Source of the DNA: an uncultured Lachnospiraceae bacterium
GTDB taxonomy: Bacteria > Bacillota > Clostridia > Lachnospirales > Lachnospiraceae
Reading direction: 5' to 3'
DNA: 64,000 bases
Assembly (NCBI GenBank): GCA_900315945.1
Contig: ONAZ01000007.1
Coordinates: 13,227-77,226 of the forward strand
In this document: positions 54,437 to 55,319 of the stretch, piece by piece
Layout: every line of letters begins with the position of its first letter
Numbering within the stretch: the stretch's first letter is position 1
Program-made: the position numbers and the translations under genes
Notes under the pieces: model-generated
The model's input: only the letters and a program-made list of their open reading frames with translations
Database searches by the model: none
What the model was told of the DNA's origin: nothing

Positions 54437-54484
54437 ATTTCCTCCTTTATCTTGTTTTTCATTATTATTTCTTGATTTTTCTAG

Positions 54485-55315
54485 TTTTTCATTGCTTTTG
54501 AGCTGAGATTTAGGGGTAAATCCCTCATTGCGGCAATGATTTAGAAGCTTTTTGGGGATTTTCATTGCTTTTCGGCCGGGATTTAGGAGTTCTTCTCTCA
54601 TTGCGGCAATGATTTAGAAGCTTTTTGGGGCTTTTCATTGCTTTTGAGCTGGGAATTAGAGTGCGAGCCCTGAATATGGCAATGATTTAGAAGCTTTTTA
54701 GGACTTTTCATTGCTTTTGAGCTGGGGTTTAGGGGTACTTCTCTCATTTCGGCAATGATTTAGAAGCTTTTTGGAGCTTTTCATTGCTTTTGGGCTGGAA
54801 TTTAGGGTGCGAGCACTGAATGCGGCAATGATTTAGAAGCTTTTTAGGGCTTTTCATTGCTTTTTGGCTAAGATTTAGGGGTAAATCTCTCATTGCGGCA
54901 ATGATTTAGAAGATTTTCGGGGCTTTTCATTACTTTTAGGCTGGGATTTAGGGTGCGAGCCCTGAATGCGGCAATGATTTAGAAGCTTTTTGGTACTTTT
55001 CATTGCTTTTTGGCTGAGATTTAGGGGTAAATCTCTGAATGCAGCAATGATTTAGAAGCTTTTTAGGGATTTTCATTGCTTTTGGGCTGAGATTTAGGGG
55101 TACTTCTCTCATTTCGGCAATGATTTAGAAGCTTTTTGGAGATTTTCATTGCTTTTTGGCTGGGATTTAGAGGTAAATCTCTGAATGCGGCAATGATTTA
55201 GAAGCTTTTCGGGGCTTTTCATTGCTTTTGGGCTGGAATTTAGGGTGCGAGCCCTGAATGCGGCAATGATTTAGAAGCTTTTTAGGACTTTTCATTGCTT
55301 TTTGGTTGTAATTAT
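54485..55315. repeat. array of ~11 tandem 73-74 bp non-coding repeats (minisatellite-like), each with internal hairpins; not CRISPR-like
   Basis: Units TTTCATTGCTTTT-[ctgNgatttaggg-variable 14-17 nt-atgc]-GGCAATGATTTAGAAGCTTTTTNGGNNNT repeat 11 times (the motif caatgatttagaag occurs 11 times). The variable segment alternates between three related variants (gggtaaatcyctcattgc, gtgcgagccctgaatgc and ggtacttctctcatttc). No ORF of 60 aa or more on either strand. Confidence 0.8.
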
Positions 55316-55319
55316 AACC

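Follow-up and report, generated by a model that had tools for sequence, protein, structure and literature searches.

The DNA analysed here is a stretch of 64,000 nucleotides (the window) from an uncultured Lachnospiraceae bacterium (contig ONAZ01000007.1, positions 13,227 to 77,226), in which a tandem array of 73-bp units is located between the stop of comEC and the gene of a 273-aa protein, both genes being on the minus strand. Arrays of this kind adjoin the gene in nearly all loci analysed of its protein family. Their units follow one plan in unrelated sequences, the unit lengths fall on a lattice of whole helical turns, the AA/TT steps are phased at 10.5 bp, and the modelled structure of the protein contains a DNA-nuclease fold. 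The reading favoured here, with moderate confidence, is that the array is a helically phased element which acts at the DNA level as a binding or wrapping site, cognate to the coiled-coil PD-(D/E)xK nuclease encoded next to it. The pairing of array and nuclease is widespread and apparently undescribed; full-text literature searches returned no description of such arrays. The features concerned are:

54486..55305, no strand assigned: tandem array, 11.2 units of 73 bp (Tandem Repeats Finder (TRF), 22-mer spacing, unit listing and alignments).
54533..54568, no strand assigned: example copy of the 36-bp palindromic core element GCAATGA-N22-TCATTGC (pattern search).
53615..54436, minus strand: 273-aa protein, with a predicted N-terminal helical hairpin enclosing a small beta domain and a predicted C-terminal PD-(D/E)xK nuclease domain.

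At window positions 54486-55305, TRF showed a period of 73 bp with 11.2 copies and 82% matches, and a super-period of 146 bp with 86% matches over the same array. The tandem array of the original prediction is therefore real, and its period, given as 73-74 bp, is 73 bp at this locus, because the 11 copies of the 22-mer GGCAATGATTTAGAAGCTTTTT (up to three mismatches; chance expectation 0) are always spaced exactly 73 bp apart. With the same tolerance, no copy of GGCAATGATTTAGAAGCTTTTT is found elsewhere in the 64 kb. The mean column identity between array copies is 87% over the whole unit. On the gene (minus) strand, a unit is composed of the arm GCAATGA, a 22-nt A-tract spacer (AAAGCCCCAAAAAGCTTCTAAA), the arm TCATTGC and a 37-nt linker. 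The linker occurs in three recurrent variants which are 80-90% alike; their number and order agree with those predicted, on the plus strand, once the variant letters are mapped. Higher-order periods of 146 and 219 bp and a mosaic order of the variants characterize the array. The predicted 7-bp inverted repeat was recovered, since GCAATGA-N22-TCATTGC is exact in 10 units where none is expected (pattern search). These ten 36-bp cores follow each other at 73-bp steps, the last one being at 55263-55298, and the core is the part kept in two gene-less mini-arrays (loci L089 and L092, described below).

Other details of the prediction fared differently. The palindrome CATTGC-G-GCAATG does exist, but only at 3 of the 11 unit junctions. 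The mini-hairpin AGGG-N6-CCCT with compensating loops, which had been proposed for the variable segments, is without statistical support: it has one variable column pair, and shuffled alignments gave equal covariation on both strands. Covariation within the window array as a whole was likewise not significant on either strand in the comparison with shuffles. The array had been described as non-coding, and the longest open reading frame (ORF) inside it, which is also the only one lying wholly within it, has 54 aa. The repeat is not an assembly artefact, a possibility that the prediction had raised against itself, because the same 73-bp unit is also found in other assemblies (L001, L090, L089 and L092). 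Copy numbers from short-read assemblies are unreliable.

The link between array and gene that was proposed for this locus holds across the whole protein family. Clustering at 90% identity left at least 747 relatives of the 273-aa protein, whose family has a typical length of about 270 aa. Nearly all of these relatives lack a name, and many lie on short contigs; the homologues come from Lachnospiraceae. Eighty loci from other species were fetched, representing the closest of at least 582 matches, and several more were added by exact-protein look-up. In nearly all of these 80 loci a tandem array adjoins the gene. The arrays of the family are hosted by gut and rumen bacteria, and they extend over Lachnospiraceae, Treponema and Fibrobacter metagenome-assembled genomes (MAGs). 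Their placement varies: arrays are found upstream, downstream only (L032 and L016) or on both sides of the gene (L030, L025, L015, L026, L069 and L051). The both-sided arrays are in direct orientation, and four arrays are inverted with respect to the gene (L013, L026, L033 and L087).

The unit sequences are unrelated between loci, and the plan they share consists of inverted-repeat arms of 7-12 bp, an A-rich spacer of about 21-22 nt that has an A4-6 tract at its centre, and a linker of about 36 nt. For instance, an orthologue with 59% identity and the same comEC synteny has a wholly different 73-bp unit. Similarly, paralogues within one MAG (L013 vs L037) have different arms. Among the arms GGCTAAC is the commonest, and other loci contain GCAATRA, GCGAACA, TACTGTAA, TTACGTG and others. 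In spite of this diversity of sequence, the arms of 34 arrays are 94% Watson-Crick complementary. In the 73-74-bp clade, comEC is located upstream in about 24 loci, even where the identity of ComEC is 25-30%. The 64-bp clade follows guaA (GMP synthase, identified by its sequence), which stands immediately upstream in L043, L044, L047, L058 and L064. Each clade keeps the 3' end of its own housekeeping gene, comEC or guaA, as an address.

An exact-match scan of metagenomes with the window 22-mer retrieved the same locus once (L090) and three more arrays of the window unit in which no copy of the gene was detected (L089, L092 and L091). Housekeeping genes flank the mini-arrays L089 and L092, of which one has the opposite orientation; the L091 array is at the end of a 2-kb contig. 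The unit could have turned out to be a dispersed repeat without any tie to the gene. Gene-less mini-arrays do exist (L089 and L092), but arrays and gene family are very strongly associated. Identical proteins are accompanied by different copy numbers (3.8 vs 10.8 units in L002 and L004), a difference that may be due to assembly collapse; many contigs are broken inside arrays.

Three independent signals, namely the length lattice, the phasing and the curvature, point to the geometry of double-stranded DNA. The periods of 59 gene-adjacent arrays are 62-64 bp (13 arrays), 72-75 bp (37), 84-86 bp (6), 95-96 bp (2) and 105 bp (1), with none between. These classes are 6, 7, 8, 9 and 10 times 10.5 bp, and the 73 bp of the window are 7 x 10.43 bp. 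Tandem repeats of the same loci which are not adjacent to the gene have periods off this lattice (e.g., 56, 60, 66, 69, 78 and 99 bp). In the AA/TT autocorrelation of 49 consensus units there are maxima at lags 10, 21 and 31-32, with a z of about 8 against shuffles. In the window array the AA/TT power of the 7th harmonic (10.43 bp) is 78.8 vs 24 for the fundamental, and no other segment of the 64 kb is as strongly periodic at 10.4 bp as the array (power 66 vs a median of 4.4). Among the 38 arrays with units of 72-75 bp, 24 have their strongest harmonic at k=7. The corresponding harmonic likewise dominates in the 95-bp array and in some of the 64- and 84-86-bp arrays. As for curvature, the ten most curved 220-bp segments of the 64 kb are all within the array in two static wedge models, with a predicted deflection of about 80-90 degrees per unit, a result which is supportive only. 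The whole 820 bp would be coherently and strongly curved, since the A/T tracts are spaced one turn apart in units of seven turns.

The AlphaFold model of the 273-aa protein (predicted local distance difference test score 87.7) shows a long helical hairpin around a small beta domain, with an alpha/beta domain C-terminal to them. This C-terminal domain is assigned to the PD-(D/E)xK nuclease fold. In Foldseek comparisons it resembles Bax1, DrdV, TnsA and the R2 restriction-like endonuclease, and a structural resemblance to the homing endonuclease I-Bth0305I was also found. It matches the C-terminus of the PADLOC candidate defence protein PDC-S68 (7e-28), and the same domain terminates large plasmid-borne helicase-nuclease proteins. 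Invariant residues, including E165, D196, E207, E211 and H212, suggest an active enzyme. The 273-aa protein and 34 relatives match no Pfam, PHROG or NCBIfam family, and searches of PDB sequences with the protein returned designed coiled coils only. A faint NCBIfam match to ParR (E 0.02) is confined to the coiled coil and was rejected as evidence of homology. No full-length relative was found on plasmids and none among the viral contigs of IMG/VR, whereas a phage collection gave three weak or partial matches only, on unannotated phage-labelled contigs from human faecal samples.

Two further features describe the immediate surroundings of the array:

55320..58229, minus strand: ComEC, DNA-uptake channel with a metallo-beta-lactamase domain (Pfam, NCBIfam).
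54437..54493, minus strand: degenerate last unit and leader of the 273-aa gene (sequence, TRF period-30 row, promoter scan and leader comparison).

The setting is the chromosome of a low-GC, Lachnospiraceae-like member of the Firmicutes. The gene order on the minus strand is comEA, response regulator, histidine kinase, GerM, ComEC, array and 273-aa gene. Beyond the latter are found the genes of an 888-aa protein, a carboxylesterase and a methyltransferase/STAS protein, a TwoAYGGAY RNA and then holA on the plus strand. The Pfam assignments of the ten flanking genes are ComEC, GerM, the two-component system, ComEA, esterase, STAS and HolA. The array begins 14 nt past the comEC stop (55320). At its other end, the leader contains a final GCAATGA arm and an A-rich stretch with a 30-bp near-duplication, and according to the promoter scan the last partial unit includes a weak sigma-70-like site (ATGAAA-17-AATAAT). 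The 273-aa gene starts with ATG at 54436 and has the ribosome-binding site (RBS) GGAGGA, from which the last full arm is about 40 nt away. The promoter or 5' untranslated region of this gene was predicted to lie necessarily within the array, which is plausible; in the last partial unit only the weak site just mentioned is promoter-like. In the scan of 54437-55319 on the gene strand no terminator-like site was present, so that comEC, array and gene are all unseparated; the counts of the promoter and terminator scans are at background level. Overall, the original prediction was right in placing a non-coding, non-CRISPR array directly upstream of a nuclease-like gene, but it missed the minus strand, the abutment with comEC and the helical-phase signature.

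At several loci the junction of array and gene has its own particularities. In the subclade of L027, L037 and L061, a conserved non-repeat leader (GGGGAGAGCCGRCATCG...GAGTCGACTCATGAYAATTC) separates the array from the RBS; it lies about 25-100 nt before the gene start and may be a separate regulatory element. In L030 (3970-4000 and 4817-4860), L025 and L069, the gene starts directly after a 5' arm. The matching 3' arm in L030 and L069 is 25-33 nt past the stop, as if the ORF filled the spacer of one unit, and in L025 the 3' arm is preceded by unique sequence of about 115 nt that contains a terminator-like hairpin. An insertion of the gene into the loop of a unit, in the manner of a miniature inverted-repeat transposable element or of homing, fits L030, L025 and the window; it was rejected, as it fails in L026, L015, L051 and L012, where the gene is in the linker. 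Extra, non-adjacent arrays of 73-75 bp are located a few kb from the gene in L049 (5773-6196), L032 (795-1295), L041 (988-1416) and L011 (1808-2209). The extra array of L049 has a period of 75 vs 84 for the gene-adjacent one. In L006 and L007 (5540-5590), where the context is not that of comEC, the upstream gene encodes an RNase J-like metallo-beta-lactamase/beta-CASP protein and a strong terminator stands before the array. That this gene and ComEC both have a metallo-beta-lactamase domain is possibly coincidental.

The remaining observations in the window concern other elements. The only matches to Rfam at the gathering threshold in the whole window are two TwoAYGGAY RNAs (RF01731), at 45918-46083 (minus strand) and 557-724 (plus strand), with 86.9 and 51.4 bits, respectively, above the gathering score and both outside the array. 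The former lies between the STAS/methyltransferase gene and holA and adjoins a 49-bp tandem repeat of 2.2 copies (46193-46300). At permissive E-values, Rfam gave two chance matches of miRNA level on the array, and a tRNA scan found zero genes. The 888-aa protein (50724-53390, minus strand), encoded directly downstream of the nuclease gene, is without a match in Pfam, PHROG, NCBIfam or PADLOC. It shows 71% identity in the orthologous locus L002/L005, and L001 has a 387-aa remnant in its place. An 81-bp tandem repeat (2.2-2.3 copies) at 32419-32625 on the plus strand, within a 434-aa ORF, resembles a repeated CxxC (zinc-ribbon-like) coding module. Other tandem repeats of the window are those of 90 bp (1.8 copies, 14324-14488) and 23 bp (3.2 copies, 42697-42770).

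Among the three roles considered in the original prediction, that of a binding-site array fits best, given the whole-turn lengths, the AA/TT phasing, the predicted curvature and the lack of a G:U bias in the stems. An iteron array in the replicon sense does not fit, with no rep or par genes nearby and a chromosomal context. A mechanism for the pairing can be proposed in conditional terms. The nuclease would form a dimer or tetramer via its helical hairpin, and the oligomer would recognise the arms of its own array, with one 36-bp palindromic site per unit. Whole-turn spacing on pre-bent DNA would place neighbouring complexes on the same face, and cooperative binding would compact the array, by looping or wrapping, into a nucleoprotein structure. 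The array would act as a DNA "dock" that sequesters or tightly controls a potentially dangerous nuclease, and the same structure would control the nuclease gene, whose start is in the last unit. Units could be gained or lost freely as long as each step preserves the helical phase. Cutting of the arrays by the nuclease, if it occurs, might lead to expansion, contraction and occasional dispersal, similarly to repetitive extragenic palindromes (REPs) and REP-associated tyrosine transposases (RAYTs). Precedents for cooperative looping and wrapping are the sopC/SopB and parC/ParR centromeres and the short loops formed by repressors.

Several points weigh against this reading. The pairing rests on co-occurrence, and from it we infer both the binding of the arms by the nuclease and the purpose of this binding. 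Arm centres are about 26-37 bp apart depending on the locus, a variation not usual among homologous proteins that bind DNA as dimers. The invariant catalytic residues imply that some target is cut by the protein, and pure docking leaves the cutting unexplained. As regards the geometry, the curvature from the wedge models is supportive only, and the 10.5-bp harmonic, evident for units of 73-74 bp, is only patchy in the 64 and 84-86 bp classes. The lattice represents few independent events, because the five length classes follow the protein phylogeny. Moreover, on the gene strand 39 of the 51 upstream arrays are rich in purines, a directional bias which also fits a role at the transcript level, and the array is probably transcribed, because no terminator separates comEC, array and gene in the window and in several relatives.

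A wider form of the binding or wrapping reading is put forward tentatively. The nuclease and its curved array may constitute a self-contained module of a kind not recognised before, in which chromosomal DNA, looped or wrapped by the enzyme, would serve as a store of it or as an antidote to it, comparable at the DNA level to RNA antitoxins, or else as a substrate for programmed expansion and contraction, each paralogue having its own orthogonal code.

The main rival, which is considered unlikely, is an array acting as RNA, as in type III toxin-antitoxin systems (PMC4627078, PMC8860590). The transcribed array would be cut to 73-nt hairpin RNAs which neutralise a nuclease toxin, and a stop of transcription, for example during phage infection, would result in decay of the RNA and free nuclease. 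The arrangement in the window suits this explanation, with direct repeats immediately upstream of the gene on the same strand, no terminator after comEC and probable transcription of the array. The same applies to the lineage-specific repeat sequence and fixed unit length, as in ToxIN, CptIN and TenpIN, to the co-orientation of the majority of arrays with the gene, and to the match of the C-terminal domain with PDC-S68. However, the fold is that of a PD-(D/E)xK DNA endonuclease and not of a ToxN/AbiQ-type RNase, and the interval from repeats to gene has no terminator. Arrays located downstream or on both sides, the four inverted ones and the gene-less mini-arrays in either orientation are also in disagreement with it. 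At the level of RNA, the stem mismatches are G:U in 25 cases, A:C in 19 and other in 52, without an excess of G:U, and the covariation within the window array is not significant, as described above. Consensus RNA folding of both strands was marginally better for the sense strand in 14 of 20 arrays, with no consistent structure in the linker. Finally, RNA does not explain the 10.5-bp AA/TT phasing and the length lattice.

Next, and also regarded as doubtful, is a REP/RAYT-like relationship, in which the nuclease maintains, amplifies and now and then disperses a family of palindromic repeats resident in the genome, being itself embedded in one of the arrays. Such arrays may serve as sites for gyrase or nucleoid proteins or as stabilisers of mRNA 3' ends. 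The palindromes of about 36 bp, their intergenic position at gene 3' ends (that of comEC for units of 73-74 bp, that of guaA for units of 64 bp), the six loci with a gene flanked on both sides, and the gene-less mini-arrays of the same core between housekeeping genes are all in accordance with it. So are the arm sequences that differ by paralogue, the copy numbers of 3.8 vs 10.8 with an identical protein, and the structural resemblance to I-Bth0305I and TnsA. On the contrary, the enzyme is not an HUH/Y1 transposase and the flanking arrays are direct, not inverted. Dispersal looks modest, because a very large metagenome scan revealed three extra loci only and there is none elsewhere in the 64 kb. 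The genomic position is kept over deep divergence, which argues against frequent mobility, and the difference in copy number could reflect assembly collapse.

A cis element of the transcript, independent of any specific protein partnership, seems improbable. Here the hairpins would form the 3' untranslated region of comEC and the 5' untranslated region of the nuclease gene, and would stabilise or process the mRNA or tune translation. No terminator follows comEC. In L030 and L025 the array must be co-transcribed with the gene, because it reaches the RBS. Some spacers are purine-rich and Shine-Dalgarno-like, and the orientation is mostly conserved. Nevertheless, the constant partner of the arrays is the nuclease gene and not the gene upstream, and some arrays are inverted, downstream-only or gene-less. 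With neither a G:U bias nor an Rfam match, this explanation also leaves the helical lattice and the AA/TT phasing unaccounted for.

At least as improbable is a neutral minisatellite, i.e., a functionless by-product of slippage or unequal crossing-over, perhaps provoked by cuts of the nuclease. The 146- and 219-bp periods and the mosaic order of variants are typical of unequal crossing-over, copy number varies among assemblies, and many contigs break in arrays. Against this, the unit length, the arm-spacer-arm plan and the 10.5-bp phasing outlast the divergence of sequence among Lachnospiraceae, Treponema and Fibrobacter MAGs, and the arms are still 94% complementary. A CRISPR or CRISPR-like guide array, which the original prediction had already rejected, can be practically dismissed: some CRISPR arrays have a similar period and the conserved segment is a palindrome, but the "spacers" are three recurrent variants and not unique, Pfam showed no cas domain in the ten neighbouring genes, the arrays of relatives repeat whole units, and Rfam gave no CRISPR direct-repeat family.

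If functional, the pairing of a phased array with its nuclease would join the short list of prokaryotic repeat arrays paired with nucleases (CRISPR-Cas, REP-RAYT, type III toxin-antitoxin and TIGR-Tas), and it would be one that reads DNA geometry, that is, whole turns, phased A-tracts and palindromes. It provides a function-linked handle on an unannotated protein family, whose members in Lachnospiraceae of gut and rumen number in the hundreds, and the arrays explain the frequent assembly breaks beside the nuclease gene. The recurrent site after comEC and guaA raises the question of DNA uptake or of a safe harbour. The arrays are also a natural, tunable series of curved repeats (6-10 turns per unit) with matched putative binding proteins, possible uses of which are studies of cooperative DNA wrapping and orthogonal DNA-protein scaffolds.

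In the comparison with known systems, REPs, the bacterial interspersed mosaic elements (BIMEs) and their RAYTs share several properties with the arrays. Both consist of short palindromes (about 35-40 bp) which are intergenic, at gene 3' ends and often in tandem clusters. Both have one dedicated nuclease- or transposase-like gene among its own type of repeat, with a repeat sequence that differs by gene lineage and a largely vertical inheritance. The window cores are extragenic imperfect palindromes within the 20-40 bp range of REPs and have equivalents in 34 related arrays. BIMEs are known binding sites of gyrase and of the integration host factor. The enzymes differ, as a coiled-coil PD-(D/E)xK nuclease without a Y1_Tnp match is found here and an HUH/Y1 (IS200/IS605-like) protein there. 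In addition, the arrays described here are strictly head-to-tail, with a fixed linker, whole turns and phased A-tracts, and they flank the gene directly with low apparent dispersal, whereas RAYT genes are flanked by inverted REPs. As for dispersal, the 64 kb contain no other copies, and metagenome contigs added two other chromosomal sites (L089 and L092) and L091.

Partition centromeres, such as sopC of F and parC of R1 and pSK41, are also built of tandem direct repeats, each with a palindromic protein-binding site (putative in the present case), and combine whole-turn spacing with an adjoining gene for the binding protein, a function which here we infer. The sopC of F consists of 12 repeats of 43 bp, each with an inverted repeat bound by SopB, and the parC of R1 and pSK41 is bound by ParR. 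These centromeres form wrapped or superhelical nucleoprotein structures and also autoregulate. The whole-turn tandem repeats with an inverted repeat that characterize centromeres and iterons are present in the window. An adjacent par or rep gene on a plasmid or phage replicon is absent, and the neighbours are chromosomal housekeeping genes. In contrast to partition loci, no ParA/ParM or Rep gene accompanies the array in the chromosomal comEC-holA locus, the partner is a nuclease with conserved catalytic residues, and the units are much longer (64-105 bp).

Type III toxin-antitoxin systems (ToxIN, CptIN and TenpIN) have in common with the present locus a co-oriented array directly upstream of a nuclease gene, with a lineage-specific repeat sequence and a unit length fixed within the lineage. 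CptIN is present in Lachnospiraceae (PMC4627078). The differences are the PD-(D/E)xK nuclease here vs the ToxN/AbiQ-like RNase, units about twice as long in more copies with no intervening terminator, arrays that are also downstream or inverted, and signals that belong to double-stranded DNA geometry. Pfam and PADLOC gave no match of the 273-aa protein to the ToxN/AbiQ, CptN or TenpN families. The recently described VIPR repeat-RNA systems (bioRxiv 10.64898/2026.04.26.720920), with a RAMP protein and 5-nt GGY/NN repeats, were considered and are unrelated.

The attC sites of integrons and of clusters of attC sites lacking integron-integrases (CALIN) are imperfect palindromes repeated along the chromosome, with arrays in Treponema. 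The arms GGCTAAC...GTTAGCC of many relatives are one base off the attC cores RYYYAAC...GTTRRRY (6 of 7 positions), whereas the window arms GCAATGA/TCATTGC do not fit them. There are no cassettes or ORFs between the units, which are copies of whole units, and no integrase is encoded among the ten genes flanking the array, the only genes scanned. The resemblance to attC is probably coincidental.

By analogy, the array most resembles in its behaviour a binding array of the centromere or operator type, joined to a gene-repeat partnership like that of REP and RAYT. A repeat array with a dedicated nuclease is a recognised kind of pairing, and there is a real chance that the one found here represents a distinct kind of system.

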